This document shows positions 1 through 62,650 of a stretch of 64,000 nucleotides of DNA, in pieces. A model generated the notes under the pieces. That model ran no database searches. It saw only the letters and a program-made list of their open reading frames with translations, and was not told where the DNA came from. The translations under genes were made by a program, and so were the position numbers. Each line of letters begins with the position of its first letter. Position 1 is the first letter of the stretch. This DNA is from Ruditapes philippinarum. Lineage: Eukaryota. The DNA lies in contig NW_026852957.1 of the NCBI RefSeq assembly GCF_026571515.1, positions 62,001 to 126,000 on the forward strand, read 5' to 3'.

Positions 1-750
1 ATGTAGCAACGAGTATGAGTAACATGTAGTTACTATAATTGTTAATGTCTTTACAACCTGTTATATAAATCGTCTATTGACAATGTATACATTTCTTGTT
101 TTCATTTACACGATTCTACATATGAGCGTGTATTTATTAAAGATTACAGTCTTACTTTGTGACATTTTATTATATGAATGAATATAGCGGTATAATATGA
201 GATAAATGAGTAGCAATCGTTGTGTTCAACAGCGGCGCGAGTGTCCTTTACTTTTCAAAGTCTTTCACAGCCACAAAGTAAATAATATTCACTATATTTA
301 AAGTACTCTCAACTTTTAAATGCTTGAGATTTGGTTTGATTCTTTTCTTCTTAATCTATTTTCTTTTTTAAACAAACTGCTATTGAAGGTCTTTCCCAGC
401 CACAAAATAAACTTTGTTTACAACATTTAAAGTTTTACATAAATAAATGCTTTAGCTATGGTTTGATTATTTCCAGTGAATCGCTTTTCTTTTTAAACAA
501 CATATTAAGACAAAAAAATCTTCTTTTTTGTTTTTCTCCATTATTTGTGTGAAATTCATCAACATATATTGCGTGCGTGCATGCGTGAGTGTGTGTGCGT
601 GTACTTGTGCATGTGTCACAGGCTTAGAATAATATTCAGCCTGGCCGGACCTTCGAAATATCGTTCCGCGGTTTTACTATCTGAGCCATCCGGCCGCCCT
701 CTAAATAGTGAACAGTTCTTCACCGTGATACATGTATGTTCACATAGATT
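1..750 (+). repeat. Segmental duplicate of 24761-25449 (partly also 61987-62313); scramblase 3'-flank block
   Basis: Collinear matches, e.g. atgtagcaacgagtatg at 1 vs atgtagctacgagtatg at 24761; ttctccattatttgtgtgaaattcatcaacatatatt shared; similarity ends at tagattcag (about 745 and 25441). Confidence 0.9.
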
Positions 751-1812
751 CAGGTGACCGGGCAAGTACCCTTCGGAAACCATCCGAATACCTAATGGGC
801 CACAGAGTGAGAGTGACCGCCCACTTCTTCCCGGACATGATTGAAATGTTTCTCTCTGATCTCAAATTATCAACGGTGTCACATCGATCCCTCTCTATAC
901 CGGCCGGTTCCCACATGTAATGTGACGTAGGCATTACAAAGGAGGGCCACCGACCGGAGACCTTTAAAAATTGGCAATTTCAGCCCGTTTAGACATCGGT
1001 ACCCCATCGTAAATCTAATCAGAGTGTTATATGACGCAGGCTATAACAGGAAACGGGAAAGACAATTTCAGAAATGATACTACTATGATATAACTATTCG
1101 TAAAAATGGTCTACATTTTTACTTAAAATAATTTGTTAGATAAAACAGTATTTGCAATTAAAATCAACAGAATCTGGTTTCATGCTAGCTTTTATATTAA
1201 CACATAAAGTGTTCAAAATGATTTAGCAATTATCAAGTGAACAAACAATGTATTACTAATACAAATACATGTAATGTGTCAAAATAATAATAAGAAATAG
1301 CGTAATTTTGTAAAAGGCAGCACAGATATGTAGTGTGAAATAGTAGTCAGACATGTTTTCATATCACATGTAAAAACGTCAAAATAACTTTTGTATTAAT
1401 ATATTTCTTTTATGTATTCACATATTGTCTGAGATTTAATGTTCTAGAAAATTTGTTAACTAATCTTTAAAAAAAATGAACGGATAATATGATATTGTGT
1501 ATTTCTATGCACAATTTAAATACCCGTTTATGATCACTATCAGAAAATATAAGGTAAATAACTACGTCGGTCATAAATCTAATCGATTTGTTATCCCCTT
1601 TAAATATGTTCCAATCTTTAAACCTTCTGTTTATTTATAGATACACATAGCAACAAGCAGACGAAGTATTGAATAGCATTTATTGTGACTGAATTAGCAA
1701 TTATTAACGGATATAACTTACTGTCGAATTAGTTTACGTTGTTAAACTTGACGATATATATTATCACATTCCAAAATTTGAAAGGATTTTCAACTGTTTC
1801 AATGTTATAAAA

Positions 1813-1835
1813 CGACTGATTTTCATAGATTCAAA
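1813..1835 (+). promoter_or_regulatory. Putative 3' splice acceptor 7 nt upstream of the ATG (intron in 5'UTR)
   Basis: ctgat branch-like motif then tttcatAG|attcaaaATG; same arrangement in the paralogue (tttcatAG|attgaaaATG, AG at 30270-30271). Confidence 0.6.
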
Positions 1836-3554
1836 ATGGAAGTATCGGGTCGTAAGGAATGGGACGATAATCATTCAACATCTAACCAAGGGAGACAACG
1901 TACAGTTCTTTGCCAACCTTGTGAATGTGACGGTGATACAATAGAAGCGGAGGCATTCTGTGAAACTTGTAACGAGTTCCTCTGTTCTTCCTGTTTGAAG
2001 GCTCATCGGAAATTAGCTATAAGTAAAAATCACGTGATCAAGTCAAAGAATGAAATGCCAATATCAAAGGAAAAGCAAAAAGATCCATGTACGGAGTTGT
2101 GTTCAGTCCATTCTACCGAAATAATAAATTTTTATTGTGAAGACCATAATTATGTAGGATGCGGAGATTGTATTGTCCTTAGCCACAAAACGTGTTCTGT
2201 TAAACTCGTCAATAATGTCTCGGATAACTATGATGCCTGTGAGGAATTCCGGCAGACCAAGAAAAAGTTAGAAAGCCTTCAGCGTAGAATTTCATCTTAC
2301 CAGGGTATTATTGTAGATTCCATTAAAGCTGCTGATGAAATGAGAGAAAAGATTATGAAAGATATTCATATTTTCCGACAAGAGATTAACGAATATTTGG
2401 ATAATACTGAGGCAGATCTGCTGAAACGAATAGATCAGCTGACATCGAAACAAGTGTCTCAGCTTAAACATATCCAAAAAGAATTTGAGTCTATGGCCAC
2501 TGAAATGAGAGAATGCCAAGAAAAAATAAATAAAAATACAAACAAGATTAATCAATTGTTTGTAATAGCAAAACTTACACATGAAAAGATTGATGCCTGT
2601 CAGATTTCAACAGAGGAGCTAGCGTCTAAATGTGAGATTGAAACATTTGATTTTGTGAAGTCTCATTATTTAGAAAAACTTGTAACAGACAAATTACACA
2701 TTGGTGTTATCAATGCAGATAAGCGAAAGTTAAGCACACTCAACAAAATGAGTCTGAAAGACGTTCAAACGACGCTGTTAAAGACGTTAAATGTCCTCAG
2801 TGCAGTACGCGACAGGACGCAAAGCTTAATATCGGGAATGGCAATAATTTCATGTGATGAACTCTTGCTTGTGGATTGTGCAAATGATTGTTTAAAACTT
2901 ATAACCTTAGAAAAATTTAAGATAGTTGTTACATTAAATACAAATGGTAAACCATGGGACATCACTGCGATAATTTCAGGATTATTCGCAGTCACTGTAT
3001 TCACAACAGGTGAAATACTATTCATAAATACATCAAATGGTATTTCTAAAAGTCACAGTATTAAGGTTAGACATGACTGTAGAGGAATCGACTACCGTAA
3101 CGGAGTTCTTGCAGTATCGTTCGACAAACCAGCATGCGTACAGCTACTTGACATTAAAGGAAACATTATGAAAGAGTTTGATATCGCTAAACAGTGTTCA
3201 TTTCCTCATTATATAGCGTTTTGTAACGACGACAACAAAAGCTTCATTGTGTCCTGTTCCTGTAATGATGCTCTTTTTGAGTTTGGGCCAGATGGGAAAT
3301 TAAAGGATAAAATAAAAAGCAATGATATAAAGAGCCCAGAACATTTTGTTGTTACACATGATCGAGCGATTATTGTATGTTGTACAAGTATCAGTGAAAG
3401 GCTTATTATGATTACACCACATACAAGAGAGGTGCTTCCCATTACTGTGGAAGATATCAAATGTCCATTTTGCTTAGCGATATCTGAAGATCAGACGAGG
3501 ATGTTTATTTCTGACACGTCAGATCGTTATATCAAAGTGTTTAGTATCAAATGA
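1836..3554 (+). CDS. RING-less TRIM-like protein (B-box1, B-box2, coiled coil, NHL/TolB-like beta-propeller), 572 aa, single coding exon
   Basis: B-box1 CQPC..CETC..CSSC..H..H; B-box2 CSVH..CEDH..CGDC..HKTC; K/E/Q-rich helical middle; blade motifs ISGMAI, KPWDIT, CRGIDY, PHYIAF, PFCLAIS; no RING motif. Confidence 0.9.
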   Translation: MEVSGRKEWDDNHSTSNQGRQRTVLCQPCECDGDTIEAEAFCETCNEFLCSSCLKAHRKLAISKNHVIKSKNEMPISKEKQKDPCTELCSVHSTEIINFYCEDHNYVGCGDCIVLSHKTCSVKLVNNVSDNYDACEEFRQTKKKLESLQRRISSYQGIIVDSIKAADEMREKIMKDIHIFRQEINEYLDNTEADLLKRIDQLTSKQVSQLKHIQKEFESMATEMRECQEKINKNTNKINQLFVIAKLTHEKIDACQISTEELASKCEIETFDFVKSHYLEKLVTDKLHIGVINADKRKLSTLNKMSLKDVQTTLLKTLNVLSAVRDRTQSLISGMAIISCDELLLVDCANDCLKLITLEKFKIVVTLNTNGKPWDITAIISGLFAVTVFTTGEILFINTSNGISKSHSIKVRHDCRGIDYRNGVLAVSFDKPACVQLLDIKGNIMKEFDIAKQCSFPHYIAFCNDDNKSFIVSCSCNDALFEFGPDGKLKDKIKSNDIKSPEHFVVTHDRAIIVCCTSISERLIMITPHTREVLPITVEDIKCPFCLAISEDQTRMFISDTSDRYIKVFSIK

Positions 3555-3651
3555 GTTAAATCCTAGGCATAACTTAGAAATGGTTTGATAACAATTTCTA
3601 GGACATTATGGACACTATTCTTATATGAACCTTACAAAAGAATTACATTGA

Positions 3652-3790
3652 CATTTTCTGTTTCATAAACAGTTCATTAATCAAGAATTGTGATGGTCAT
3701 GTTTACATTCGATCATATTACATTTTCTATTTCATAAACAGTTCATTAATCAAGAAATTTGTGATGGCCATATTTACATTCGATCTTCAT
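3652..3790 (+). repeat. Two-copy direct repeat of about 68 bp in the 3'UTR, followed by AATAAA at 3812-3817
   Basis: cattttct(g/a)tttcataaacagttcattaatcaagaa...tgtgatgg...tttacattcgatc occurs twice. Confidence 0.8.
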
Positions 3791-6424: not shown

Positions 6425-9400
6425 AATATATATATTCTTTATTTGAGTCTCATCCATACATAATATAAAACAATTCAATGACATAATTTTACAAAGTAAA
6501 AGTTATTTATGTACGGCCATTCTTATCAGAATTACAAGAGACTATAAAATTTTTAATCTAATGGAAGGGAGGCAACTCTGCAAGAATGTCCAATGTTACT
6601 TACAGAGTTACCTCTCTTCTCATTCCATATTCATATGCATGTTACAATTTAAAATTGCTAAAATAAGAAACTATTGCTAATCTTGTTCTAAAATACTTAA
6701 AATGTTTCTGGTAATTTTTGCTTTACAGTAAAAATCCTTAAAATGTTCTCTTCCTTAAACCCGTAAAATTACACTGAATAGCAATAGATTCTTAAACTAT
6801 AAAATCATGTAAATAAAATTATTTCGCATCATTGGAAAGATAAAAACCTATACACGTAAAATAAAACATTATTCACATTTAAGTGACTTTACATATAATG
6901 TCTTTGCCTAAAAATAAAATAAAAACGATCAGTTACTAATTATTAACTATGAGTATGTTTACCATTTCAAGAGACCTAGAGAGTTTACAATTACCCTTGT
7001 CTAATGATTAAAAGTATTAAAATATTACTAACCATAAAATCAGGCTTATAAATACCCTGATTAGTACAATTTCTCAATAATATAATGTAAGACTCTCAGT
7101 TTGTTGGATAAAAAGTTTAGCAATTTACATTAACATTATAAGAGACAGTTCTCATGAATATAACCAGTTAGTTCTACTTTTAAGAATATTGAAACAGGAT
7201 TTTGCAGCACACTTTACAATTTCAGTATTGGAAAAAATGAACGACAATTTATTATCATCAGACAGCCTTAAAAATTGATCATTTACATTTTCTGCTTTGG
7301 CAAATAAATCTTTCCTAATATCCTCATACCTTGGACAATATAAAATAACATGTTTCTCATCTTCAATTCCAGTTTTACAGATTGGACAAATTCTTTGGTT
7401 CAAAGCTAACCTTTCATATCTGCCCGTTTCGAGTCTGATAGGGGCTACCCCACATCGGAACTTTGCAAATGCTGCTCTATGCTTAATCGGCAGGATAGCA
7501 GTTACATATGCTTCTGTTTCATAACTAAACTTAAAGGTTCTGTAAGTCCTCAATTTATTTCCCCCTTGCCCAGAACTACTATTTATTGTATGTAGTGACT
7601 CAATCCATTCATCCAAATACTCATCTAGATATGAGCTGGTTAGCTTTTCCACCAAACAATTTTTATTTAAAACATTATTAAGAACAAAAAATTCACCACA
7701 GTTATATTTCTCAAAAATTTCTTTTACTCTAAAATACCAGTTCTTACAAGTTCTACCCGCCTGCTTAAAACAGTACATATTTACTTCACAATTTATTCTC
7801 ATACTGTTCATACTTGCAGATCGACACCAAGTACTCGCCACACATTTAAGTTGTTTAATAAAGATAGGTTCCCAGCCCATATCCCCGGCAACTGCCGCAT
7901 TTGGAGTGTATCTGCCTGTTCCTAAGAAAAACCTCATTGCCCGGTTCTGTACTGCTTCAATACATTTGTACTTTCTTGTACCCCAAATAGCAGCACTATA
8001 ACCCATAACAGGCCAAACAATGGAATCATACAATTTTTTAAATACATTGAAAGGCATACCTCCAAGTTGCTTAAATTTTGCAATAATAAGTCCAAGAGCC
8101 CTGCTTGCTGCCTTAGCAACAAATTTTGCTGTAAAGTTATAGTCAAGAAACTCATTAAGAGCCAGCCCAAGATAGACATAGCTATCAGTGACATTTAAAC
8201 TATCAGTTCCACACTTGAATGGAAACGATGTTCTTGGTGTCGATAAGCTTCGAAAATGTACAACATTACTTTTCTTTACATTGATTGCCATATGATTTGT
8301 ATTACACCATATAAATACAGTATCTAACATGGCTTGTAAATCCTGCTCATTTTTTGCCAAAAGTACTACATCATCAGCATATAATAAAATTGATAAGAAT
8401 TTACCCTCTTCAAGTTCTATTCCTAGACCTAGAGACTTTATGTTTACAGCCAGATCATTTATATAGCAGTTAAATAACACGGGGGATAAAATGCATCCTT
8501 GACGTAATCCCAAATTAACATCAAACCACTTTGAAGTGTAACCATTCAGTCTTATACATGAACTTACACAAGAATATAGAGACTTAATAACATTTAACAT
8601 TTTACAATTCAATCCCATCTTAAATAAATGTTCCCATAATATTGAACGGTCAACTGTGTCATAAGCCTTTTTAAAATCTATAAACGCAGTAAAAGTGCTG
8701 AGTTTCTTTTTTAATCTAGTTTCTATAATAGATGTGATACTTGATAAATGGTCCCCAGTACTACGCTTCTTACGAAAGCCATTTTGCTCATCTACCAATT
8801 TGGAGTTATCCTCTAACCATGATGATAACCGTTCGTTAATAACTGAGCAATATAGCTTGTACATAGTAGGTGCTAAAGTTATACCCCTATAATTTAACGG
8901 ATTCAAAGGATCTGTTGTATTAGATTTTGGGATGGGATTAATAATGCCTTTTCCCCAGTCTTTAGGTATTTGACCAGTTTCGAAACATACATTAAACAGT
9001 ACATGCAAGAATAAAACTGCAGTATCATTTTTAAAAGCTTCATATGGTATGTTATCAACACCACAAGCTTTACGGAAATCTGCTTTATCTATGGCTTTTT
9101 TAACTTCATTTACTGAAATATTATTGTCTAGCTGTGGGATATAACTGTTATGATCTGTCTGAACGTCTCGATAAACACTAGATCCATCAGCAGGGGAACC
9201 ATTCAAGAGATCTTTAAAACTATCTTTCCAATAATCTAACACTTTGTCTTGATCTGTAACTAATACTCCTTTGTCATCAACAAACTCAAATGGAATGTTG
9301 TGTGTTTTTGTTTTAGATATACCAACTTTACCAATTGTTTTCCAAAACCTGTTTTGGTCACATTCTACATAGTTAAGTAGTTCTCCCTGCTGTTGGAACC

Positions 9401-9450
9401 AGTATTTTCTTTTAGTTTTTTGTACCTCCCTATCAAAAAGTTTTCTAAAG
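6425..9450 (-). mobile_element. 5'-truncated non-LTR retrotransposon (probably RTE-X-like) with about 730 bp 3'UTR
   Basis: RT ORF plus 3'UTR ending gagactcAAATAAAgaatatatat on the minus strand; no endonuclease domain or ORF1; clade assignment is from recall of the C-terminal motif only. Confidence 0.8.
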
Positions 9451-9458
9451 ATAAACAT
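7152..9458 (-). CDS. LINE ORF2 fragment: reverse transcriptase plus C-terminal Cys/His knuckle (768 aa, N-terminally truncated)
   Basis: NYRGITL, QNGFRK, FIDFKKAYD, GLRQGCILSP, LLYADD, YLG motifs; ETGRY..CPIC..EDEKHVILYCPRY. Confidence 0.92.
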   Translation of the reverse strand: MFIFRKLFDREVQKTKRKYWFQQQGELLNYVECDQNRFWKTIGKVGISKTKTHNIPFEFVDDKGVLVTDQDKVLDYWKDSFKDLLNGSPADGSSVYRDVQTDHNSYIPQLDNNISVNEVKKAIDKADFRKACGVDNIPYEAFKNDTAVLFLHVLFNVCFETGQIPKDWGKGIINPIPKSNTTDPLNPLNYRGITLAPTMYKLYCSVINERLSSWLEDNSKLVDEQNGFRKKRSTGDHLSSITSIIETRLKKKLSTFTAFIDFKKAYDTVDRSILWEHLFKMGLNCKMLNVIKSLYSCVSSCIRLNGYTSKWFDVNLGLRQGCILSPVLFNCYINDLAVNIKSLGLGIELEEGKFLSILLYADDVVLLAKNEQDLQAMLDTVFIWCNTNHMAINVKKSNVVHFRSLSTPRTSFPFKCGTDSLNVTDSYVYLGLALNEFLDYNFTAKFVAKAASRALGLIIAKFKQLGGMPFNVFKKLYDSIVWPVMGYSAAIWGTRKYKCIEAVQNRAMRFFLGTGRYTPNAAVAGDMGWEPIFIKQLKCVASTWCRSASMNSMRINCEVNMYCFKQAGRTCKNWYFRVKEIFEKYNCGEFFVLNNVLNKNCLVEKLTSSYLDEYLDEWIESLHTINSSSGQGGNKLRTYRTFKFSYETEAYVTAILPIKHRAAFAKFRCGVAPIRLETGRYERLALNQRICPICKTGIEDEKHVILYCPRYEDIRKDLFAKAENVNDQFLRLSDDNKLSFIFSNTEIVKCAAKSCFNILKSRTNWLYS

Positions 9459-11265
9459 ACAACGTAAAATGCACTTAACATCAAATACATTCTTATAATA
9501 ATCTTCATTAAGAAATGCTATTAGATTAAGTCCAAACTAAAATGATAACTTAAAAAATAAAATTGGGGAGAACTGTCTGCATATATAAAATTTAAAAGAG
9601 AACCGTCAGGGGAGGAAACTGTTTGGGAGAGAACCGTATGTTCGTTAAGTTAGCCGGAACAGCCGGAGCAGCCGGAACTCATTTTGTCTATTTTTGTCTC
9701 ATTTTGAATGGCAATCATGCAAATGAATTACGTTTGGTGAATAACTAACCACCTAAAAGGTATGGTAAACGGAAACTACGCCGCTTCTTGTCGCCGACGT
9801 TAAATACCGAAAATGAGCGGATAAATACGTTTATTTACGATGATGTAGTGGGCGGGAAAATGGGGGGAGCTTATTTTATCTACTACTGAAATACGTGTAA
9901 AGCTGGATTATGCTGATCCGAATCATGATGGCTAAGAATGTAACTTCTGTTTTGTCGGCGTATACACGAACAATGAGTATTCGAACACTTGGTATTGCTA
10001 CTATCAGTAAATGTTTTGTCGTTTCACAAAATGTATTTTGTTGAAATTCATGTTTACAATGTTAAATCGGCAAACTCAATCCAAGGTTTACATATAATTG
10101 TATTTTGTCTATTAACAAACTGTTCAACTCAGATCAACAAGGCTGGATTTTTGGCCATATATATATAACAGTCGAGTTTTTTTCCTATATGAATCAATGA
10201 AAAAACTGTACTGTTATATATCAATACAGTTTTGAAATGCTTGAAGTGTACTGAGTATAATGGGTTAGTTAGAACAAAGGATAAGTTCCAAACCATGCGA
10301 TAAATGGTTATCTCCCCCGGCGTTTAAGAAATTAGAGATCCATACCGAACTACAATGTAATTGCATTGTGTCCTATAGATCAATAGCTGATCAATAGCTC
10401 TATAAAATATCTAGTATCAAATAACGTGTTATAAGGTTGGATATATATGTTGGAAAAAACCTGGCTAAAATAATAGTTTTACAGGTTTCGGTTGGATAGC
10501 TAATATCAAGAGGATCTCATAATTAACTGACATATATTTCCGTGTATATTATAAGACACATCGGTGTGTGAATATACATAACTTTAAATAAAAGGGAGGT
10601 AGAAATTGTAAGTACCTTGTTTGTTATTGTTTTTTTTTATATATTCTAATGTGTACTTGTCGTTAACATGTCAATAAATTGATATAAAACTTTGAAATTG
10701 CAGAATTTGACTAATTCAGTAACTCATGAAATATATATCTTTTGTCTATATGTAGAAGTACGTTGTACGTTGGTTTTTTTGTACCCTTTTAATACCTGCT
10801 AAATTACGTAAATGGATTTTCCCAGTTTCCATTTATGGAACTGACCATTACATCAACTCGGGGGGGGGGGGGGGCATATTGATGACGAATTAAACAACAA
10901 ATTTGAACTTGTGTGACTTTTTATGAGTCCAGAAAGAGTTTACTTTCGTGACTTTACCGATTTCACTTTAATTTAAACAAACGTTGATTTATTGATAAAC
11001 TTCATGTGTACAAAGGGTTAAATATCAAATTGTGTCTATATCAATATGATATAAATATATTTGCTCGCCCGCTATGGTTTAGTCCGGTTGGAAAATAACA
11101 TGCATAATTACGACAGGTATGTCGTTATTTTATTAACTTAAAAATTAAAATAAGTAATAAATACAGAAACTGACAGAATTTCTCTTTATTAAGATAAATT
11201 ATAATTTCATTACATTATTGAAATATTATTAAGGGATTGAATTTGTATTATTGTAAAATAACATA

Positions 11266-11573: not shown

Positions 11574-11732
11574 TACCGGCTCCTGTAATGAAAGATTAAA
11601 TATTTGTGTTGCGGATCGGTGGCCAATTTCAAATAATAAATTGTCATTGTCTTTGGCCACTATTCTATTTTTTAGAGGACATGAATGAGGGCGCCTCGTT
11701 TATTTTATCAGCAAAATATTGAGTTGTGAGAA

Positions 11733-11775
11733 ATGGAGAAGTCCTTATATCCACCTGAACCGCCGCCTTCATATG
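11733..11775 (+). CDS. Scramblase coding exon 1 (MEKSLYPPEPPPSY, phase-1 donor)
   Basis: aaATGG start; G|gtaata donor; frame continues into exon 2. Confidence 0.7.
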
Positions 11776-20700: not shown

Positions 20701-23379
20701 CCTAAACAAAAATTAGGACTAACAAAGTTCTTCCTTAAACCTTAATGAAAGTAACAAAGTCCTTAAACATATATTAAAGTAACTAAGTCATAATTAGACT
20801 TTTAAGATTCTTATTTATTTAGAGTAAGTATTTTTAATATTAAGATGTGGCATCATTACGCTTCCGTATCAAAACAGATTTTAAATTTTCGACCGTGCGA
20901 CCACATACACGCATCGAGGACATATTGAACGGAAAGTGACCGTGTGATCACAGGATTCCCCTTCTTATTCGAGAAAAGGGCAAAATGCAGTCCGCCCCTT
21001 TTATAAAAGGACAATATTATAAAATGTGCAATTTCCTTATTGCTATCAATTAGGAGGCTTATATTTAAGACTCTGTCTTGAATTGGTTTAAATACAACTA
21101 TGGTTAAGCAAATCAAACATTTTTCGTCTTTTTAAGTTTCCTATGAAAAGTTAAAAAGATCATTAAAATTTGGAAAATCTTGAGTTAACTGTTTTGTCTA
21201 CGTTTCATTTTATGTATATAATATAATTATATGTATTTTAATTCTTAAAAACATAAAAGTTTTCAAAAACGTTTCATATGCATTAAATGTAGGAGATGTA
21301 TATCACACTTAGTCTTGGGGCATTTTTGTCAAATTGCGTATTTATTTTCTGACTTTGCTAACAGTACCTGACTTATCCCACTTGTAAAGGAAGAGGTAAA
21401 ACTATAGATATACGATATACATATGAGCAGTCAATTCAAGTTATTTAATCGATTCCCACATATTGTAAATCGCAATAAATTCATGGACTTCGTTTGGATT
21501 TAAATTTCATTATTGTGTGTCATTAAAAAGATTAATCGCATTGAAAACTATTCCGTAATTAATAAGAGACGAGTTCATGAAAAGTATAATATAAAGGCGT
21601 TCCTAATTTGCACTTGAAAAAGCAATATTTCAAAGCGCAGATAAATCGAAAAACGGACCCGATAACAACCACTTTTCGTTTACAAATGTTTCTGCACTAA
21701 GCTCACCAAATTTTTAAACAAATTCTTTTTTTACAGATTTTAATTTACTTATATGTTTATTATCCGAGCACGATAAACAGAATTTTCTTCACATTTATTT
21801 ATAGTACCGAATAGTCTATATTAATACAATATAGGTAAATGAAATGTTGCACATCTCAATGATTGTACGTTTGACTGATAATTGTAAAAGTAAATAAAAA
21901 ATGTCGCAATATCTCTATCGGTAGAGCACTATGTTCAGAAGGATCCTACTCCTCGACAGGAGGGTAACAGGTTTTCACCACGGCCAAGCTAATTAGCTCC
22001 GCTAATTTGCTGCGCGCCCCGACATTTTAACTTGATACTTGGCGGAGTCACGGGGCGAAAACACAAAATGGCACAAATCAGCCACCATAGTTATATATTC
22101 AAGTCACAAACAGTATGATGATTGAATTATTAGCGCAATGCTCCTCACCAACTATCTTACTATTGAGACATTGGTAGATTTTAAAATGCGTCACGTGACA
22201 TTTTAAGGATTTATTATTTTATATAATTGATATATCAGGTATTAGCACGTGATGGCATAACTCAGTTGGCAAGATTTACCAAACACTGGGGCAAGATAGA
22301 GGATTCCATCCGCTTGAAAAAATTCTCATTAACTTGTAAGTAGGATCATCTATTATATTATAATGCTGTTTATGTGTTTCTCTCCCCTGATTATTTGCGG
22401 TTGGGCAAATGCATAAAAAGAGGTACATCTCAATTAAGCTTATACATTATTATTATAACTCGATTGTTGACTTACTGATATCAATGTACCTTCACCAGTC
22501 CCCTTTCTGGTACAGACCAATACTGGTGTCATATGGGGAAACACGGTCGTGACCCAAATAGGGTTCGAACCAACGGTACCGGTATTGCTCTGCAGAGGTT
22601 TATATTGTACTTTCTAACAGGTGCAACTTCTTCTTAAATAAGTCTTTAAACATGAATGTATCAAATAGACTTTTTCTGCGTTTGTGAAAGCTTTTAAGAT
22701 ATCAAAATGCCATTGATTCTAATCACCTTGCACGAGTATATAGGAACTAACAATTCAGACGAATATTTCTGAAATTATCTTCTCTGAAGTGCAAATTTGC
22801 TGGCCTTTATACTTGTAAACATAAACTTAACTAACGAGGAATGCAAACATTAGATATTGAATTATTCCAGTTGCACCTATGTTATCATGAATAAGGTATT
22901 GTCATTTAATTCAACTATCACAAACTTACATGAATATTTATTACTAAGTCTTATGTTCCTTCTTATACATATTCCGTCTGATACATTTTCCGCACTATAT
23001 TTGTTCCATCGTATACATGTCCCTTTGTTTTCCGTCTTATATATGTTCTATTTTAAAGATGTTCCGTCTTACGCATATTCCGTCTTTGACATATTCCGTC
23101 TTTTCCATGTTCTGTCCTATACATGTTTTCTCTTAAAGATGGTCTGCCCTGAACATGTTCAGTCTTATACATATTCAGTCTTAAACATATTTCGTCTTTT
23201 TCATGTTCTGTCTTATACATTATCTGTCTTTAACATGGTCTATCCTAAACATGTTCTGTGTTATACATGTGATGTCTTATAATGTATCAGCTATTTAAGA
23301 AAATCTTTTTCTGTTTTAAGTTCCTATGGATTTAGATGAGAGAATGAAGGCTGTGTTGCTTGGAACAATTTTCGCAATT
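11733..23379 (+). CDS. Phospholipid scramblase (PLSCR family) gene; 9 coding exons, 831 nt, 277 aa; terminal exon not located
   Basis: Exons 11733-11775, 12336-12386, 14320-14508, 15211-15285, 16066-16148, 16409-16527, 17952-18066, 22239-22335, 23321-23379 all have GT-AG borders and compatible phases. The joined frame has no stop. Family motifs: CPRGLEYL, YKIMNANGQQVF, CCSCCPC, IEAPVGQVIGY, KHW, FPMDLDERMKAVLLG. Confidence 0.9.
11866..12165. repeat. Minisatellite with a unit of about 39 bp in scramblase intron 1
   Basis: Recurrent aaaggcgtattaatgcgaataagagcgttataacgcaaac-type units, about 7 copies. Confidence 0.85.
12336..12386 (+). CDS. Scramblase coding exon 2 (DSLPGIVQQQPSAPPPP)
   Basis: tcttctttttatcag| acceptor, cag|gtaatg donor; 51 nt, phase 1-1. 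Confidence 0.8.
12436..12662. mobile_element. Long-TIR MITE, copy 1
   Basis: tgagttgcgcc..caacatagtgcgtttgcgaccagc..gatccagaccagcctgc is mirrored by gcaggctggtctggatcc..tcgcaaacccactatgttg..ggcgcagctca. Confidence 0.85.
13141..13326. mobile_element. Long-TIR MITE, copy 2 (same family, internally deleted)
   Basis: Shares caacatagtgcgtttgcgaccagcat and gcaggctggtctggatccat with 12436-12662. Confidence 0.85.
13662..13919. mobile_element. TTAA-flanked MITE (Kolobok-like ends)
   Basis: TTAA|agggac ... gtccct|TTAA. Confidence 0.65.
14092..14300. mobile_element. Degenerate MITE; relatives at about 3865-4025, 52665-52870, 60088-60244 and 62808-62970
   Basis: Shared core gtgcagacc.agatcag..ctgatc.tggtctgcactgttc and the tgtccatcttt..ggacaaaaccattcatc end motif. 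Confidence 0.55.
14320..14508 (+). CDS. Scramblase coding exon 3 (Met/Pro/Gly repeats, then WM..CPRGLEYL..LFIHQ)
   Basis: ttttctgaag| acceptor, gag|gtttgt donor; resembles PLSCR1 WMPAP..CPPGLEYLSQIDQILIHQ. Confidence 0.9.
14900..15138. mobile_element. MITE with imperfect TIRs of about 43 bp
   Basis: ctatggtggctgatttgtgccattcgtgttttcgccccgcgac ... gtcgcggggcgaaaacacgaatgccacaaattaataaccata. Confidence 0.85.
15211..15285 (+). CDS. Scramblase coding exon 4 (GMYDESAYWYKIMNANGQQVFTAIE)
   Basis: tttgcag| acceptor, aag|gtaaag donor; resembles PLSCR1 NKYEIKNSFGQRVYFAAE. Confidence 0.9.
15783..16306. repeat. Three copies of a 50-70 bp arm (forward 15783-15831, reverse 15852-15918, forward 16238-16306) around scramblase exon 5
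   Basis: Core tataaacggtt / aaccgtttata with flanking tttgaca(t/g)gt and aatataa. Confidence 0.75.
16066..16148 (+). CDS. Scramblase coding exon 5 (DPSNTSGTCVCLPGQRGYNVRIKDNINN)
   Basis: tttcag| acceptor, |gtatgt donor; resembles PLSCR1 CCGPSRPFTLRIIDN. Confidence 0.88.
16409..16527 (+). CDS. Scramblase coding exon 6 (EVMRVTRDPICCSCCPCLGCEHVVKIEAPVGQVIGYFKS)
   Basis: ttttccag| acceptor, |gtaagt donor; Cys cluster and IEAP.G..IGY motif. Confidence 0.92.
16750..17725. repeat. Minisatellite of about 21 bp with palindromic core CCTACGTAGG, arranged as two inverted arms
   Basis: Left arm mostly ataactcctacgtaggacttt (16750-17030); right arm mostly aaagtcctacgtaggagttat (17335-17725); about 300 bp spacer. 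Confidence 0.9.
17952..18066 (+). CDS. Scramblase coding exon 7 (QKGCGSITFTISDAGDQVVFIIKFPACATSSYQQAQEYQ)
   Basis: ttttcacag| acceptor, cag|gttatc donor; phase 2-0; aligns with PLSCR1 FTIQNEKREDVLKISGPC. Confidence 0.8.
21985..22090. mobile_element. Truncated inverted copy of the 14900 MITE
   Basis: ggggcgaaaacacaaaatggcacaaatcagccaccatag is nearly the reverse complement of 14900-14937; internal gctaattagc also shared. Confidence 0.8.
22239..22335 (+). CDS. Scramblase coding exon 8 (VLARDGITQLARFTKHWGKIEDSIRLKKFSLT)
   Basis: atcag| acceptor, |gtaagt donor; KHW motif. Confidence 0.88.
22445..22595 (-). mobile_element. tRNA-derived SINE relic
   Basis: Minus strand has B-box GGTTCGAACCC, then gtcacgacc..catatgacaccagtattgg..ccagaaaggggact (recalled as a mollusc Meta/MESC-type body; unverified) and a short (ata)n tail. 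Confidence 0.6.
22950..23280. repeat. Degenerate tandem repeat with a unit of about 20 bp
   Basis: Recurrent tatacat(a/g)ttc(c/t)gtct units. Confidence 0.8.
23321..23379 (+). CDS. Scramblase coding exon 9 (FPMDLDERMKAVLLGTIFAI)
   Basis: ctgttttaag| acceptor, |gtaagt donor; aligns with PLSCR1 FPLDLDVKMKAVMIGACFLI. Confidence 0.92.
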
Positions 23380-23586
23380 GTAAGTTTAATAATTAGTAGG
23401 GAGCATATATTTATTTAAATCAATTTTGATCAACTAATGACTTTAATAAAAAAGATAAAACCAAAACTGAATTTATTGTGGAATATTTATTGCATTTTTG
23501 GCATTGATTTTTGTTTTTGTTTTTGTTTATCATATTTTGTAAAATGAACATAATGTTTCATGAAATATTAAGAGACAGTTTTCTAT

Positions 23587-23716
23587 NNNNNNNNNNNNNN
23601 NNNNNNNNNNNNNNNNNNNNNNNNNNNNNNNNNNNNNNNNNNNNNNNNNNNNNNNNNNNNNNNNNNNNNNNNNNNNNNNNNNNNNNNNNNNNNNNNNNNN
23701 NNNNNNNNNNNNNNNN
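23587..23716. other. Assembly gap (130 N)
   Basis: Run of n. Confidence 1.
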
Positions 23717-25449
23717 CAGTGATACAGATAAATCAAAACTGAATGAAACTAAAAATCAAACTTTGTTAAATATTTGAACGGTATATTTTACTAAATTTAT
23801 TTATCTAGACTATCTAGAGATTGTGTTGAAGATAAAGGATTTATTTGTGTTCAATGTTTAGATATAAAACTTTACAATTGAATGTGAAGCTAACATTTGT
23901 GTTATACTTTGCTACCTACGTATAAACACAGTATCGCACTATATAACACTATATAATTTATGCCATTCTGATGAAGCTGAAGTTCTGGAGCTGTTAAAGG
24001 TTATTCACTTTCTTTATTACGGTTATAACAAATAATGATAACACATTTTGTGTGAGCACTACATCTAATTAGTAATCTCTTTGTTTCATTTCGTACAGAC
24101 TTGCAGTTTTTGGACAGAGGTTGCTTATGGGGTGAAATAGTTTCCTTATTTGGTTTTACAGACCAAAAATGATCAAAGAAATATCAATGTTCATTCCGTA
24201 CACACTTGTACTTGTGGATAATAAAGAGAACGTCCGTCCGTCCGTCCGTCCGTCCGTCAGTCCTGCTTACTCGATATCCGTCTTTAACAACTTAGGAAAA
24301 AGGGGAACATTCGTGTTCTATGTCGGCAAAGATTTTCGATTGTAAATTTAAATCCTAATGTATAATACATTTCTATTCGTTTCAGATTTATTTTTGTATA
24401 GACGAAAAATGTAAAGATATAACATTTTAGTTTTACAAGCAAATTTTCATCGTGTGAGCTAACAGACCATGAATCAATTTCAAAAAAGCAGTAGATTAAC
24501 TTGTATACAAAATTGGTGTTGTTAAATTGCAGGATGTTATGTATTATCCACCAGTTGAAAGTGAAAGTGATCCCAGTATGTGAAAATGACAGTTATAAGT
24601 TTGGCGGAGAAAAGAAAACTTAAAAAAAGACACATAATTAATGGATTTGGAGTTTTCAGCTGATTTTTAGCTCGTGCAATCAGAAATGACAATTTCAAAA
24701 AATCAATTTTCTTATTTATTTGTTTTATGATATTGATTGTAAAATGTAATTTAATGCATTATGTAGCTACGAGTATGGTAAACATGTAGTTACTATTGTT
24801 AATGTATCTACGACTTGTTATATAAATCTTCTATTGACAATGTATAAATCTCTTGTTTTCATTTACACGCTTCTACCTTTCAGCGTTTATTTATTAAAGA
24901 TTATAGTTTTATTTTATGATATTTGATTATATGAATAAACATAGCAAATCGTTGTGTTCAGCAGCAGCGTGAGTGTGCCATGCTCATAGCCACAAAGTAA
25001 CAAATATTTACGATATTTTATATTTAAAGTACTACCAACCTAAACGCTTTAGCTGTAATTTGATTATGTCGCCTTAATCGCTTTTCTTTTTAAACAAATT
25101 GCTATTAAAGGCTGTCCCAGTCACCAAATAAACTTTGTTTACAACATTTAAGTTCTACACAAAGAAATGCTTTAGCTGTGGTTTGATTATCTCCCCTTAA
25201 TCCCTTTTATTTTTAAAACAACTTAATAAGACAAAGAACCTTCTTTTTTGTTTTTTCTCCATTATTTGTGTGAAATTCATCAACATATTAATATTATATT
25301 ATATTATATTGATATGCGTGCGTGTCACATGATAAGAAAATGTGCAATCTGACCGGGACTTTACTGACTGAGATATCCGGCCGCTTACACATCTTCTCCT
25401 TTAAATAATGAACAGTTTTCAACGGTGATGTATGTTGCAATAGATTCAG
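23717..25449 (+). repeat. Probable scramblase 3'UTR and downstream block, duplicated at 1-750, 61068-62313 and 63669-63779
   Basis: Collinear similarity, e.g. ttcattccgtacacacttgtacttgtggataataaagagaacgtccgtccg in both long copies; AATAAA at 24934-24939 and 62140-62145. Confidence 0.8.
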
Positions 25450-26741
25450 TAATGTTTGAATTACCTGTAATGTTTCAATGTTTAACATTTGATATCTTTA
25501 CCCCTTGATAATGCGTCGTCTATAGCAATATCCGAAAATTTTAGTTTAAATTTTGAATAAAAAAAAGATTAACGAAAAAGACAATACCATACAATACATA
25601 GCCTCAATCAAACCAAATGATTTTGCTTATCTCTTTTTGTGCGATATTGCATGTCCTGTCGTGATTTAACTGATTTACAAGAGTATTGATTTCACATAAT
25701 CAATAAGAGTCTGGTGGAAGCACTTAAATATATTAAAAAACAAAAGTTGCTGGGAAAGCAGCAATTTTGGGGCTCATGCAAAAATTAAAAGGGGGCCCCA
25801 AAAACAGATACTTACCCAAATTTATTCCTGCCACATGTATTTAGACATTTTTGACATTTTTAATCTATTTGGGGGTTAAAGGGTTTTTTTCATGCGTGTA
25901 CATTTTTTTTAAAACCAAAATTTTTTTGTATAAAGAAATTTTTAAAATTTGGGAAAATTTTTACTTTTGTATGCATTTTCCATTAAGAAGGGGCCATTTG
26001 GGATTTTAAAAATTAAAAATTTTAAAACTGCTTTTCACTGATGTTTTTACCTTTTGGTTAAAAAAAAAGAATTCCCCAATACAAAACAAAAAATTTAACA
26101 AAACATTTTTTAAAAATTTAAAAGGTATTTTTGAACAAATTTTTTTTGGGCCAAAAAGGTTTGTTGGGCAAAAATTGGGGTTCTTTGGTTTTTTTTCCCC
26201 AAAAAAGGTAAAAAATTTTTTTTTAAGATTTTTTTGGGAAAACATTTTTTTTTAAAAGGTTTAATTTTTACAAAATTTTTTTTTTCCTTAAAAATGGTTA
26301 ACCCATTTTTTTAACAAATATAAAAACTTTTTCATTATATATTAAAATCCCCTATGTAAATAAGGCCCAAAATTTCATCCAAATTTTTCTTTCAAAAAAG
26401 TCCGTTTAAAGTTTTTGGGGGCAAAAGGTAACAAGAAAAGGGATTGATGCAAAGCATCAAAGAGGGGTCCCCAAACCAAAAAATGGCAGCAAGTGACATG
26501 AAAATAGTAGACTTGTAATGAACCCGGGGGCCGTTTTTATCACGGGTAAAACGACACCCCGATATTTTTTATAAAGTTTTTTCAGCTGTTTTTAATTTGA
26601 TTTTACCAGAAATTGTACACATGTATATCAATCTTAGGTGAATGGGCGGATGAAAGAACATTGTTCAACATGAACTTTGGTAGACTTTGCCTAGAAGATA
26701 TTTGGGACATAAAAACAGTTTGTCAAAATGAATAAAGTTTG

Positions 26742-27585
26742 TTTTTTGTGCCCACACATTAGTGGCAGGCCATTAAGATTTACCCTTGTCCCGTCCGTTC
26801 CGTCCGTTCCAATTCCGTCCCCGTCCGCCTGTCCGTTCTCTTTTAATGTCGTAACGTTAATTTCAAAGTATTTGACCTAGAGTCATGAAAACTTTTACAG
26901 GAATGTGTTGATCAGCCTGTAAAGTTGGTGCACCTGGGGTATTTTAGTGTGGATAATTTTTGTATTTTTAGAGTTATTGCCCTTTACTTAGAAAATGTTT
27001 GCAATTTTCAACTTGTGTCGCATGTAACACAAAAAGGATTTGACATAGAGTCATTAAACCTTATGGGAAGGTTGCTCAGCATATTTAGTTTTGCTCCTGG
27101 GGTTTCGCTTGTGGATTTATCCAGTATTTGTAGAGTTATTTCCCTTGACTTAGTAAAAACTGTTTCATTATGTTGTTATTTGTTCCTTGAGTGCTTGATT
27201 GCTTGAGTTAGAATCGACCAACTTTACAGGAATAATGATCAACATCACTAAATTACAGGAATACTGATTCACATCACTGTGAAGCTATGAACCTGGGACT
27301 TTGCATGTAGAATTTTTTTCAGTTTTTGTTAGAGTTATTGCCCTTGACTTACAGTAGTATAAATTTGCAATTTTCAACTTTGGGTTTGCTTGGGGAATTT
27401 ATTTCAGTAAAAAATTTTTAAAGTTTTTTTGCCCTTGAAAACCCTTAAATAAAAAGGAATTTTTTAGGTTTTTTTAAAAAATTATTTGACCCTAGAGTTT
27501 TAAAAAGAAATTGGGGCAAGAAAAAGTGGCGGGGTTGGGGGGCCAACCCCGTGTTCCCTAAATTTGGGCAAATAATTTTAAGTTT
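26742..27585 (+). mobile_element. Helentron-associated non-autonomous element (HINE/DINE-1-like)
   Basis: Starts in a T-run; (gtcc)n microsatellite; internal tandem units of about 165 bp (tttgac.tagagtcat..tagagttattgccctt); degraded GC-rich 3' end followed by a T-run. Confidence 0.7.
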
Positions 27586-28696
27586 TTTTTTTTTTATTTA
27601 AATTTTTTATTTAAATTTTTTTATTAATTTAATTTTTTTAAATTAAATTTTTTATTATTAAAACCCTTTTTAAAATTGGTTGGGTTTTTTGTTGTTGTTT
27701 TTTGTTGTTGTTTGGGGTTTTGTTTTTGGTTTTTTGTTTTTTTTGTTTGTTTGGGGTTTTTAAATATGCCCTTAAAATTAAAATTTTTTATTATTTTTAT
27801 TATGTTGGGTTTTTTTTGTATTTAAATTTTTTCAAACAGAATTTTAAAAGGTTTTTTAAAAAAGGACTTTTTATGCAATAATTAAAATTTTTTTCCCTTT
27901 TTTTGGGTATTTTAAAAAAATGGGTTTTTTTGATAGTTAAGATAAGTTTGGCTAAAATTTTAAAGGGCCCCCGACTAAATATGACATTAAAACAACACTG
28001 AAATAAAAAATTTTAAGGATGGAAATTTTTAAAATGATCAAATTCAGGGTTTTTTTGTTTGTTGTTTTGCTTTTTTTAAAAAATTCATTTTGCCAATTAA
28101 ATTTAAAATTTTATTAATTTGCCAAAAATTGGCATGTTTTATACGGTGGGAAAAAATTTTTTACCCAAAACCAAAAGGGGAAAAATTGTTAAAAACCTTT
28201 AAAATTTTAAAAAATTTTGAAAGGGGAAACCACTTACATCATGTTCATGCGAGTCAAAGATATAAAAGCTACTTGACATTGGTGATAAATAAAGAGCTTT
28301 TTTTAATTGATTTATTGGGAAATCAATCTACAATTTTGTTGAATTGCTTCAAAAGCCTCGTCGGACCCACCAGTGTTTACATTCTTATCAATAAACCCAA
28401 ACCACCTTATGTTACAAAATGTTAAAGTTTCCGTTGTTAGATATCACAGTTTTCGGCAAATCAACATTCCACTTAAAACAACCATAAAATCGATTGTCTA
28501 AAAACAAAATAGAATAAGCTTTTTAAAACAAAAATCGGGAAATAAAGTTCGATTTAAATATTCACGGTAAAAACTGTCAGAAGTACAATCAGGGCCGTAA
28601 GAAAAGAAAGAAGCAATTAATTTACCAGGAAACGGAAAAGACAATTTCAGAATGATACTACTATGATATAACTATTCGTAAAAAATGGCCTGCATT

Positions 28697-29426
28697 TATA
28701 CTTAGATAAAATATAAAGAGTTCAATTTATTGTTAAATGTGTTTGCATTTCATTTTCTCCAAAAGCCTCAGGTTAGTTATTTATTGCCATAGCGGCAATC
28801 GGAACGTCCCCGGCTATTATCTATATTAACCTCGGAAACAACAAGGAGTGACAGTAGTTCTACCACGTGGTTTCAGATGTAAACCTAATGTAAAAGTACA
28901 TATAATTGACATCCAAAAGAAAATTAAGTCTGTTTCGGAACAGACATGATTGAAAATATGTCTGACAAAAATTTTTAATTTAAAATGCCCACTGATGTAC
29001 AATTTTAAACAAATGCGACTAAATGTCAACAGGTCGGCATTTTTGTACTTTCGGTTTCTACAACCATTATAATAAATATATAAACAATGTATCGTTTGCT
29101 TTTGTATCTATGAATACACTTATTCTAGGTTGGCATTTACTTAATATTTTGGAAATAAACCGATATACCTATAATATTTGTCCGAAGACTTACGGAAAGG
29201 GTCGAAAAGTTGAGATCGCCATAGCGGGACACGAATGACCGTTTCGTTTAAACAACCATTTCACCAATCGGAATGTCCGAAAAGTTGCGATTGCCCTTCA
29301 TTCATTTTATAAAGGACGTCGCGCTTCGGCGCGAACGCCAATAAAAATGTTGAAATAAATGCCCATGGTTGTATTGCTCTATTTAAAATCAATGTGTTAA
29401 TCAATACACTATATACTTAGATAAAA
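28697..29426. mobile_element. Insertion absent from the paralogous region, bounded by a 15-bp direct repeat
   Basis: tatacttagataaaa at 28697-28711 and 29412-29426; the paralogue runs from about 1125 to 1160 without it; internal cgcgcTTCGgcgcg hairpin near 29320. Confidence 0.5.
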
Positions 29427-30278
29427 ATACCTAGGTTTAAAGGTTTAAAATTACTTTGATTATTTACCATATATCGGATCTTTTATAAATTCCGTTGCAT
29501 ACACATGTACGTAGAATATTAAAGTATAAAATGTATCATTATCAACAGGAATGCTATGATCAATAAAAATATAACGTGAATACAGTAGTATTCTATTGCT
29601 TAACGTTAGAAGAGCTAACAATATAAATCAACAGAATCTGGTTTCATGTTAGCTTTAGTATTAACACATAAAGTGTTCAAAATGATTTAGCAATTATCAA
29701 GTGAACAAACAATGTATTACTAATACAAATACATGTAATGTGTCAAAATAATAATAAGAAATAATGTAATTTTGTAAAAAGCAGCAGAGACATGTAGTGT
29801 GAAATAGTAGTCAGACATGTTTTCATATCACATGTAAAAACGTCAAAATAACTTATGTATTGATATATTTCTTATAATGTATTCATATATTGTCTGAGAT
29901 TTAATGTTTTGGAAAATTTGTAAAATAATCTTCAAAAAAAAATGAACGGATTAATAATATTATGATATAATGTATTTTATGTCCAATTTAAATACCCGTT
30001 TATAATCACTATCAGAAAATATAAGGTAAATAACTACGTCGGTCATAAATCTAACCGATTTGTTATCCCCTTTGAATATGTTCCAATATTTAAACCTTCT
30101 GTTTATTTATAGATATACATAGCAACAAGTAGCATTTATTGTGACTGAAATAGCAATTATTAACTGTCGAATTAGTTTACGTTGTTAAACTTGACGATAA
30201 ATATTATAACATTTCAAAATTTGAAAGGATTTTCAATTGTTTCAATGTTATAAAAAGACTGATTTTCATAGATTGAAA

Positions 30279-31997
30279 ATGGAAGTATCGGGTCGTAAGG
30301 AATGGGACGATAAACATTCAATGTCTAAACAAGGGAGACAACGTATAGTTCTTTGCCAACCTTGTGAGTGTGATGGTAATACAATAGAAGCGGACGCATT
30401 CTGTGAAACTTGTAACGAGTTCCTCTGTACTCCATGTTTGAAGGCTCATCGGAAATTAGCTATAAGTAAAAATCACGTGATCAAGTCAAAGAATGAAATG
30501 CCAATATCAAGGGAAAAGCAAAAAGATCCATGTACAGAGTTGTGTTCAGTCCATCCTACCGAAATAATCAAGTTTTATTGTGAAGACCATAATTCTGTAG
30601 GATGCGGAGATTGTATTGTCCTCAGCCACAAAACGTGTTCTGTTAAACTCGTCAATAATGTCTCTGATAACTATGATGCCTGCGAGGAATTCGGGCAGAC
30701 CAAGAAAAAGTTAGAAAGTCTTCTGCGTAGAATTTCATCTTACCAGGGTATTATTGTAGATACCATTAAAGCTGCTGATGAAATGAGAGAAAAGATTATG
30801 AAAGATATTCATATTTTCCGACAAGAGATTAACGAATATTTGGATAATGCTGAGGCAGATCTGCTGAAACGAATTGATCAGCTGACATCGAAACAAGTGT
30901 CTCAACTTGGGCATATCCAAAAGGAATTTGAGTCAATGGCCACTGAAATGAAAGAATGCCAAGACAAAATAAATAAAAATACAAACACGATTAATCAATT
31001 GTTTGTAATAGCAAAACTTGCACATGAAAAGATTGATGCCTGTCAGATTTCAACAGAGGAGCTAGCGTCTAAATGTGAGATTGAAACATTTGATTTGGTG
31101 AAGTCTCAGGAGTTAGGAAAACTTGTAACAGACAAATTATCCATTGGTGTTATCAATGAAGAAAAGCGAATGTTACACACACTCAACAAAATAAGTCTGA
31201 CAGATGTTCAAACGACGCTGTTAGAAAAGTTGAATGTCCTCAGTGCAGTACGCGACAGAACAGCAAGCTTAATATCAGGAATGGCAATAATTTCCTATGA
31301 TGAAATCTTGCTTGTTGATTGTTCAAATGATTGTTTAAAACTTATAACCGTAGAAAAGTTTATGATAACTTTTACATTAAATACAAATGGTAAACCATGG
31401 GATATCACTGCAATCAGTTCAGGATTATTCGCAGTTACTGTATTCACAACAGGTGAAATACTATTCATAAATACATCAAATGGAATTTCTAAAAGTCACA
31501 GTATTAAGGTAAGAAAGGACTGTAGAGGAATAGACTACCGTAACGGAGTTCTTGTTGTATCGTTCGGCAATCCAGGATGCGTTCAGCTACTTGACATTAA
31601 AGGAAACATTATGAAAGAGCTTGATATCGATAAACATTGTTCATATCCTCATTATATAGCGTTTTGTTACGACGACAACAAAAGCTTCATTGTGTCCAGT
31701 TCCTGTAACAATGCTCTTTTTGAGTTTGGTCCAGATTGGAAATTAAAGGATAAAATAAAAAGCAATGATATAAAGTACCCAGAACAACTTGTTGTAACAC
31801 ATGATGGAGCGGTTATTGTTTGTTGTGGAGATATCAGTGATAGACTTATCATGATTACACCACATACAAGAGAGGTGCTTTCGATTACTGTGGAAGGTAT
31901 CAAACGTCCAATGTGCATGGCGATATCTGAAGATCAGACGAGGATGTTTATTTCTGACGCGTCAGATCGTAATATTAAAGTGTTTGGTATCAAATGA
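30279..31997 (+). CDS. RING-less TRIM-like protein, paralogue of 1836-3554 (572 aa)
   Basis: Same length and motifs; 72 aa differences by hand count. The real start is the ATG at 30279, not the TTG at 30237. Flanks are homologous (29626-32105 vs about 1161-3660). Confidence 0.9.
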   Translation: MEVSGRKEWDDKHSMSKQGRQRIVLCQPCECDGNTIEADAFCETCNEFLCTPCLKAHRKLAISKNHVIKSKNEMPISREKQKDPCTELCSVHPTEIIKFYCEDHNSVGCGDCIVLSHKTCSVKLVNNVSDNYDACEEFGQTKKKLESLLRRISSYQGIIVDTIKAADEMREKIMKDIHIFRQEINEYLDNAEADLLKRIDQLTSKQVSQLGHIQKEFESMATEMKECQDKINKNTNTINQLFVIAKLAHEKIDACQISTEELASKCEIETFDLVKSQELGKLVTDKLSIGVINEEKRMLHTLNKISLTDVQTTLLEKLNVLSAVRDRTASLISGMAIISYDEILLVDCSNDCLKLITVEKFMITFTLNTNGKPWDITAISSGLFAVTVFTTGEILFINTSNGISKSHSIKVRKDCRGIDYRNGVLVVSFGNPGCVQLLDIKGNIMKELDIDKHCSYPHYIAFCYDDNKSFIVSSSCNNALFEFGPDWKLKDKIKSNDIKYPEQLVVTHDGAVIVCCGDISDRLIMITPHTREVLSITVEGIKRPMCMAISEDQTRMFISDASDRNIKVFGIK

Positions 31998-32469
31998 CTT
32001 AAATCCTAGGCATAACTTAGATATGGGTTGATAACAATTTCGAGGACACTAAGTCTATTAATTTATATGAAACCTTACAATTCAAAGAATTACATGACAT
32101 TTTCTGTTATTAGACGCCGCTTGCAATGGGGAAAATTTTAGACTTGATTTTACATAAGTATTTTTTTTGTTTTAACAAAATCACACTGTTCTAAGATTTT
32201 CTAATAAAAATAGCTTTTCTAATGCACAACATGTCACAGAGCTTTAAGGGATTTGAATAAACGACTAACTGAAATTCTAATGCCATGTTTGAATATCATA
32301 CTCTTTTTATCATTATCTAATTTTATCTACATAATAAATAACGTGCCAATGAGCCAGTCTATTGTCGATCGTTCTTAAACTTAACCGTTGAAAGAGATTA
32401 CGACTGAGGCAGTGTCACTTACTTTATTTGCCCCGCCTCTGTTGAAGCCTTAAATTGTCGCAAAAATTC

Positions 32470-60977: not shown

Positions 60978-60994
60978 TTATTATTATCATTATA

Positions 60995-61052: not shown

Positions 61053-61054
<2 letters not shown>

Positions 61055-62617: not shown

Positions 62618-62650
<33 letters not shown>

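Follow-up and report, generated by a model that had tools for sequence, protein, structure and literature searches.

A clam scramblase gene probably duplicated in tandem with a neighbouring RING-less B-box gene

Proteins of the PLSCR/Tubby/LURP superfamily share a 12-stranded barrel enclosing a C-terminal helix, and human PLSCR1 carries an acidic calcium-binding motif at D273-D284 (PMC2639001). Human PLSCR1 is interferon-induced and antiviral (PMC9158361, PMC12501134), and the PY motif of mammalian PLSCR1 helps NEDD4-2 to bind and ubiquitinate PLSCR1 itself (PMC12368045). TRIM-NHL proteins (Brat, TRIM2/3, TRIM71, Wech) and the TRIM-like proteins of bivalves that have no RING domain combine two B-boxes, a long coiled coil and a beta-propeller. 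Tandem expansions in bivalves (TNF and C1qDC in Mercenaria, PMC8905726) and the clustered human PLSCR1/2/4 genes (PMC9158361) show how gene copies are born and die through recent duplication in place. Here we analyse 64,000 nucleotides (nt) of the clam Ruditapes philippinarum (contig NW_026852957.1, positions 62,001 to 126,000, hereafter "the window"), in which a scramblase gene lies upstream of a RING-less B-box gene. A first-pass annotation of this sequence had proposed that the two genes are amplified together as a linked immune pair. We found that a segment of about 28 kb carrying both genes was probably duplicated in tandem, and passive duplication, in which the genes travel together simply as neighbours, is the likely explanation. 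The locus resembles the tandem expansions above, but differs from them in carrying along an unrelated neighbour gene, whole once and as a fragment once.

Two units, A and B, are collinear over five segments: a repeated block, an 82-bp anchor, the region upstream of the B-box gene, its coding sequence and about 110 nt past its stop codon. The features of the two units are:

1..751, plus strand: block A, a paralogous copy of scramblase 3' untranslated region (UTR) or flank, putatively the 3' end of the P0002 gene; 86.8% identical to 24761-25449, in a register 178 nt past a stop codon
1044..1125, plus strand: collinear non-coding anchor of unit A, 91.6% identical to 28623-28704
1155..1835, plus strand: conserved upstream region of B-box gene A, 94.6% identical (ungapped) to 29619-30278
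1836..3554, plus strand: B-box gene A (P0004, 572 aa), a single coding exon; B-box1, B-box2, coiled coil and NHL-like beta-propeller, no RING
3555..3662, plus strand: right boundary of the duplicated unit, about 110 nt past the B-box stop, 92.3% identical to unit B
24761..25449, plus strand: block B, 3' UTR/flank of scramblase gene B, with AATAAA at 24934 and 25127
25450..29618, no strand assigned: sequence specific to unit B, separating block B from B-box gene B, with 28623-28704 as its sole anchor
30279..31997, plus strand: B-box gene B (P0005, 572 aa), a single coding exon, 87.4% identical to A at the protein level

Self-BLAST and alignment of the window showed that 1-751 and 24761-25449 agree in 567 of 653 aligned columns (86.8% ungapped). 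This alignment, together with the collinear anchors, bears out the first-pass annotation, which had reported the block at 24761-25449 to be repeated at 1-750 ahead of a TRIM-like gene. The best BLAST score for the block was 464 bits, compared with a peak of 35.6 among 50 doublet shuffles. Further along, self-BLAST paired 1155-3662 with 29619-32108 at 91%, the two B-box coding sequences being 92.9% identical at the DNA level, and similarity between the units stops at 3662/32108 with a final offset of 28,443 nt. The divergence of the block, about 13%, agrees with the synonymous divergence (dS) of the B-box genes, which three methods placed at 0.09-0.13 (0.128 by NG86, with a non-synonymous divergence, dN, of 0.064), as a single duplication event predicts. 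In unit B the block is separated from the conserved upstream region by 4.2 kb (25450-29618) that, apart from the 82-bp anchor, has no match elsewhere in the window. Part of this spacer (~25700-28300) is homopolymer-rich and resembles unpolished long-read sequence, so that its base-level detail is unreliable; the bin 26001-28000 has 306 homopolymer bases, whereas every other 2-kb bin has between 0 and 91.

The nature of the block became clear from the scramblase gene model:

11733..24583, plus strand: scramblase gene B (P0003, 293 aa, 10 coding exons), exons 1-9 corresponding to P0003 residues 1-277, supported by splice sites and a PF03803 match (E=3.6e-37)
11733-11775, 12336-12386, 14320-14508, 15211-15285, 16066-16148, plus strand: coding exons 1-5
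16409-16527, 17952-18066, 22239-22335, 23321-23379, 24533-24583, plus strand: coding exons 6-10
24386-24430, plus strand: alternative last exon, isoform P0001

Translated exons 1-9 match P0003 residues 1-277 with zero differences, and a search with exon 3 returned P0001 (R. philippinarum scramblase 1-like) at 100% identity, plus the paralogue P0002. The protein had earlier been described as 277 aa long, the last exon at 24533-24583 having been overlooked. Block B begins 178 nt after the stop codon in that exon, and the block is therefore the scramblase's own 3' UTR/flank; its position downstream of the coding part had been correctly noted, but not that it belongs to the gene. A candidate last exon at 24099-24172, of which the copy at 61.4 kb would have been a decayed version, was rejected, as its phase is wrong and the annotated proteins use 24533 or 24386. 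Intron 6 contains palindromic minisatellite arrays (16738-17734) that give many inverted self-matches.

Does a scramblase also precede unit A? P0002 is a full scramblase paralogue of 297 aa, 84.6% identical to P0003, and none of its exons lies in the window. It is encoded on a 166,489-bp record, the same length as that given for P0001, P0003 and both B-box proteins of the window; identical record lengths are what we take throughout to mean the same record. Base 1 of the window stands in register 178 nt after a scramblase stop, which would place that stop 2,013 nt ahead of B-box gene A. Since P0002 is found on a record of this length, outside the window, and the register fits, the presence of a scramblase ahead of base 1 is favoured, and it is probably P0002 that directly precedes block A. 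A third B-box copy, P0101, truncated at 368 aa and about 91% identical to A and B, also resides on a record of the same length outside the window. The accession order (P0002, P0003, P0001, P0101) weakly supports the same physical order. Phylogenetic analysis placed P0002 and P0003 as sisters (100/100), with P0007 as their one Mercenaria orthologue. In a quick tree of 30 selected B-box rows (29 of 41 matches, plus P0005), A, B and P0101 formed a clade with 100% support, and the relatives around it were Ruditapes proteins from other scaffolds. Metagenome contigs yielded 0 matches to a degenerate pattern of the block and 58 pattern matches to the B-box protein, 0 of which were confirmed as relatives.

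We propose the following history. A dispersed, intronless, RING-less B-box gene would have landed about 2 kb behind a single-copy divergent scramblase, an arrangement that seems to have arisen in the Ruditapes lineage. A stretch of about 28 kb, starting at the scramblase and ending some 110 nt past the B-box stop, would then have been duplicated head to tail, probably by unequal crossing-over, yielding P0002 with B-box A followed by P0003 with B-box B. The duplication junction would fall somewhere in 3662-11733, where a LINE is also found:

7152..9536, minus strand: LINE-type reverse transcriptase open reading frame, 794 aa (RVT_1 E=1e-34), in the interval with the putative duplication junction

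Later insertions would have lengthened unit B, and a further event may have copied no more of the scramblase than its final exon, the intron end before it and the 3' flank after it, perhaps ahead of P0101. Each protein would act on its own: judging from its relatives, the scramblase as a palmitoylated membrane protein of the Tubby/LURP fold whose PPxY motif may recruit a WW-HECT ligase that regulates the scramblase itself, and the B-box protein as a putative dimeric, propeller-bearing adaptor. The locus would thus illustrate how, in a clam B-box cluster, tandem duplication can carry an adjacent gene along, in addition to providing a corrected gene model. Linkage of a scramblase and a B-box gene was not reported in the top literature matches, judged by title and the start of the abstract, in a search that reached few subscription journals; the available parts of PMC8195603 and PMC11486371 add nothing on such a pairing.

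Several observations weigh against passive tandem duplication. The region upstream of the B-box gene has diverged by 5.4%, against 13.2% for the block, which may reflect promoter constraint, conversion or two separate events. Shared sites number 19 between P0101 and A, 16 between P0101 and B, and 8 between A and B, counts that favour no single order of events. Neither gene has a broken frame in unit A or unit B, the B-box dN/dS is about 0.5, and selection on both would give the same picture. The place of P0002 just upstream of base 1 is deduced from record length and register rather than read. Finally, the B-box family is huge and we placed a sample of it, so that a member beside the Mercenaria scramblase is possible.

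A further copy of the scramblase 3' end occurs near the right edge of the window:

61068..62313, plus strand: block C, an orphan piece of scramblase 3' sequence (last part of the final intron, final exon, start of the 3' UTR), with no upstream exons in the window
63660..63781, plus strand: stub D, the start of the same intron fragment, cut by unrelated sequence at 63782 and lying inside a local repeat

Block C matches ~23717-25095, running from late in the last intron through the final exon into the block, of which it covers the first ~370 nt. It retains one of the ten scramblase coding exons; exon-wise blastn detected no copy of exons 1-9 in the window outside gene B, and no B-box gene follows block C in the rest of the window. 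Its last exon (61810-61866) has an intact acceptor and a basic tail like that of P0002. The first-pass annotation had the same block recurring at 61068-62313; a related copy is indeed there, but it spans a different interval and leads to no B-box gene. Likewise, the proposed amplified unit of scramblase plus B-box gene is probably right as regards co-duplication, as indicated by P0002 and the register, but the third unit offers only an orphan exon. Among the blocks, B and C share 40 sites, A and C share 16, and A and B share 3. The block C counterpart of the alternative last exon of P0001 (24386-24430) is at 61667-61696 and ends in an early stop. Nearby, a local direct repeat pairs 59752-61178 with 62466-63781 (85-94%) next to an N gap, and where the first copy has this gap the second has simple repeats only; the repeat may be a real duplication or a scaffolding artefact.

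Block C bears on the alternative that survives best, namely that a unit centred on the B-box gene dragged along only the 3' end of a scramblase, leaving block A an orphan, with P0002 elsewhere on the scaffold. Block C shows that such orphan fragments arise at this locus, and the record carries three B-box copies as against two whole scramblases. However, P0002, on a record of the same length yet outside the window, needs a last exon and 3' flank of its own, for which block A fits in register, and the two protein pairs have diverged to a similar extent (84.6% identity for the scramblases, 87.4% for the B-box genes). We consider this partial capture unlikely.

If the pairing of the two genes had been kept by selection, linkage would be expected in related species. 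We placed genes by record length, for a sample of the B-box family and with no neighbours read directly. The single scramblase orthologue of Mercenaria, P0007, is on a 76,376,716-bp record, and none of the 10 sampled Mercenaria B-box relatives is on that record (they were found on records of 82.4, 86.0 and 104.1 Mb). None of the 15 off-scaffold Ruditapes B-box relatives, seven of which are at 69-74% identity, shares a record length with the four other Ruditapes scramblase matches. The check proposed earlier, whether PLSCR paralogues repeatedly sit 5' of B-box genes, found no case among these relatives. With A, B and P0101 forming a nested recent clade, the linkage looks recent and local.

The scramblase itself is a clear member of its superfamily. 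Pfam Scramblase (PF03803) matched P0003 at 128.3 bits and P0002 at 130.5 bits, against a gathering score of 25.4. The predicted structure of the scramblase (pTM 0.78) has 12 strands and a helix at 264-281, the barrel being wrapped around this C-terminal helix, and the best Foldseek matches were 1zxu and Tubby (probability 0.99-1.0; E 1e-3 to 3e-3, just above 0.001); a sequence search with P0003 against solved structures gave 0 matches. A cysteine-rich palmitoylation motif and a proline-rich N-terminus with PPxY, both recognized by sequence, are present in the alignment. In a tree of 38 selected rows the window gene falls in a separate, long-branched 100/100 clade and the five vertebrate rows group apart, so it is, by its sequence, a divergent venerid-type scramblase and not a PLSCR1 orthologue. 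The acidic calcium-binding loop of vertebrate PLSCRs is absent from P0001-3 and P0007-9 and present in the Ruditapes scramblases P0015 and P0017; across the divergent clade (P0002/P0003 and P0007-P0010, from Ruditapes, Mercenaria and one further record) a basic/aromatic loop takes its place. The name "PLSCR1-like" is consequently no ground for importing the antiviral role of PLSCR1.

The B-box proteins meet the description of RING-less TRIM-like proteins given in the first-pass annotation. No RING family in Pfam matched genes A or B at E<=0.1, a RING pattern (a crude regular expression without a positive control) was found in none of the six frames of the window, and residues 1-21 are disordered in the protein model, with B-box1 starting at residue 25 and helices at 136-233 and 238-265. 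A crude RING pattern also occurred in 0 of 182 B-box relatives, which argues that lacking a RING is the normal state of this family. Profile searches matched the B-box/coiled coil of TRIM28 (E 3e-24) and the NHL domain of TRIM2/Brat (E 1e-17 to 1e-18), and zf-B_box matched at E 5e-5 to 2e-4, narrowly missing the cut-off in A and B but passing it in P0101. In the fold search the NHL propeller of Brat took the first five places (E 3e-14); the Pfam NHL family itself was unmatched in A or B. Both genes are intact single-exon frames, with an acceptor-like AG 7 nt ahead of the ATG of gene A. They differ from the TRIM-NHL proteins in having no RING, an intronless coding sequence and a place in a subfamily that has expanded in Ruditapes and whose function is a prediction (members are 69-91% identical to one another and no more than 44% identical to Mercenaria proteins); the family as a whole comprises 1,255 representative clusters at E<=1e-10. 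One relative, P0006 (a 3,142-bp JGI record), is 98.2% identical to B-box B and labelled "phage host-nuclease inhibitor protein Gam"; from its sequence, it is clam DNA in a metagenome, wrongly labelled.

These properties bear on a selected immune cassette, in which the PPxY motif of the scramblase would draw a NEDD4-type ligase to its RING-less partner. In favour of it, two units have undamaged frames of both genes, and PPxY is retained in both P0002 and P0003; mammalian PLSCR1 binds NEDD4-2 in part through its PY motif (PMC12368045), human PLSCR1 has the interferon-linked antiviral activity described above (PMC9158361, PMC12501134), and a bivalve-expanded B-box orthogroup is annotated as interferon-beta (PMC8382680), although it was not shown to be the same family. 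Against this, the linkage is absent in the sampled Mercenaria and Ruditapes relatives, the third unit has no scramblase body, and the B-box copy P0101 is truncated, so that not every amplified unit holds both genes. The unlinked orthologue from Mercenaria, P0007, likewise carries PPxY, as do 25 of 88 scramblase matches, and the motif, as read from these sequences, is older than the linkage; the scramblase belongs to a clade remote from vertebrate PLSCRs and without their acidic loop; and a missing RING is ordinary in this B-box family. In the PLSCR1-NEDD4-2 system, moreover, PLSCR1 is the substrate, and the available part of that report (PMC12368045) describes no adaptor role toward a third protein. 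By analogy, the N-terminal PPxY of the clam protein, a motif known from sequence, is a plausible WW-domain ligand, and NEDD4 recruitment may plausibly serve to regulate the scramblase itself; nothing implicates the B-box protein. We therefore found no support for the ideas that the two genes form a linked immune pair or that PPxY supplies E3 activity to a RING-less partner, and a selected cassette is very improbable.

Equally improbable is that a lineage-specific juxtaposition has since been co-opted, either as co-regulated joint action or through read-through that fuses the PPxY exons to the B-box exon. Exon 6 of the scramblase ends in phase 2, and in both copies the acceptor-like site 7 nt before the B-box ATG would take this phase in frame; with nine donors available, one such in-frame match is expected by chance. 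Through such a fusion, a RING-less TRIM-like protein would acquire in cis a motif that recruits NEDD4, and co-option would offer the many RING-less TRIM-like proteins of bivalves a route to borrow a HECT ligase, of interest to invertebrate immunologists.

Passive tandem duplication also fares far better than two readings that doubt the unit itself. Four whole or partial copies of the block in 64 kb might suggest a dispersed transposable element, an idea that, judged from the window, is hardly credible, as the block forms one stretch with a coding exon of the scramblase and the splice acceptor of that exon, and its copies are all on one strand, have differing ends and show no terminal repeat on inspection of the ends. 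R. philippinarum is highly heterozygous, and the N gaps and the poorly polished stretch might suggest two haplotypes assembled in tandem; this is just as remote a prospect, because the metagenome protein P0006 (98.2% identical to B-box B, 87.0% to A) puts allele-level difference at about 2%, far below that between A and B, and the units differ by kilobase-scale indels and in their flanks. The local repeat at 59.7-63.8 kb could still be an artefact.

The two scramblase copies have evolved unequally since their duplication. With P0007 as outgroup, 20 substitutions are unique to the window scramblase and 5 to P0002 (relative-rate chi-square 9.0, p=0.003), and with P0008 the counts are 23 and 4 (p=0.0003), so that the window copy evolved about four times faster; its branch in the 38-row tree is 0.19 long, compared with 0.016 for P0002. 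The window scramblase has also lost its basic C-terminal tail, which P0002, P0009 and block C retain. Relaxed constraint and decay, or a new function, may lie behind this acceleration, as both fit, and we regard it as a lead worth pursuing.

The window also contains a second B-box/coiled-coil/propeller family, in four tandem copies on the minus strand (36170-38200, 43100-45230, 47850-49950 and 57000-59200). These are about 22% identical to genes A/B and 76-97% identical to one another at the DNA level, and the proteins fetched include no close relative of theirs, the best reaching 26%. The reading frame is disrupted in all four copies; one has an in-frame stop at codon 436 and one a 1-nt deletion near 57314. 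Two copies carry the same 53-nt deletion (near 37646 and 49381), which points to an inherited lesion rather than a sequencing slip.

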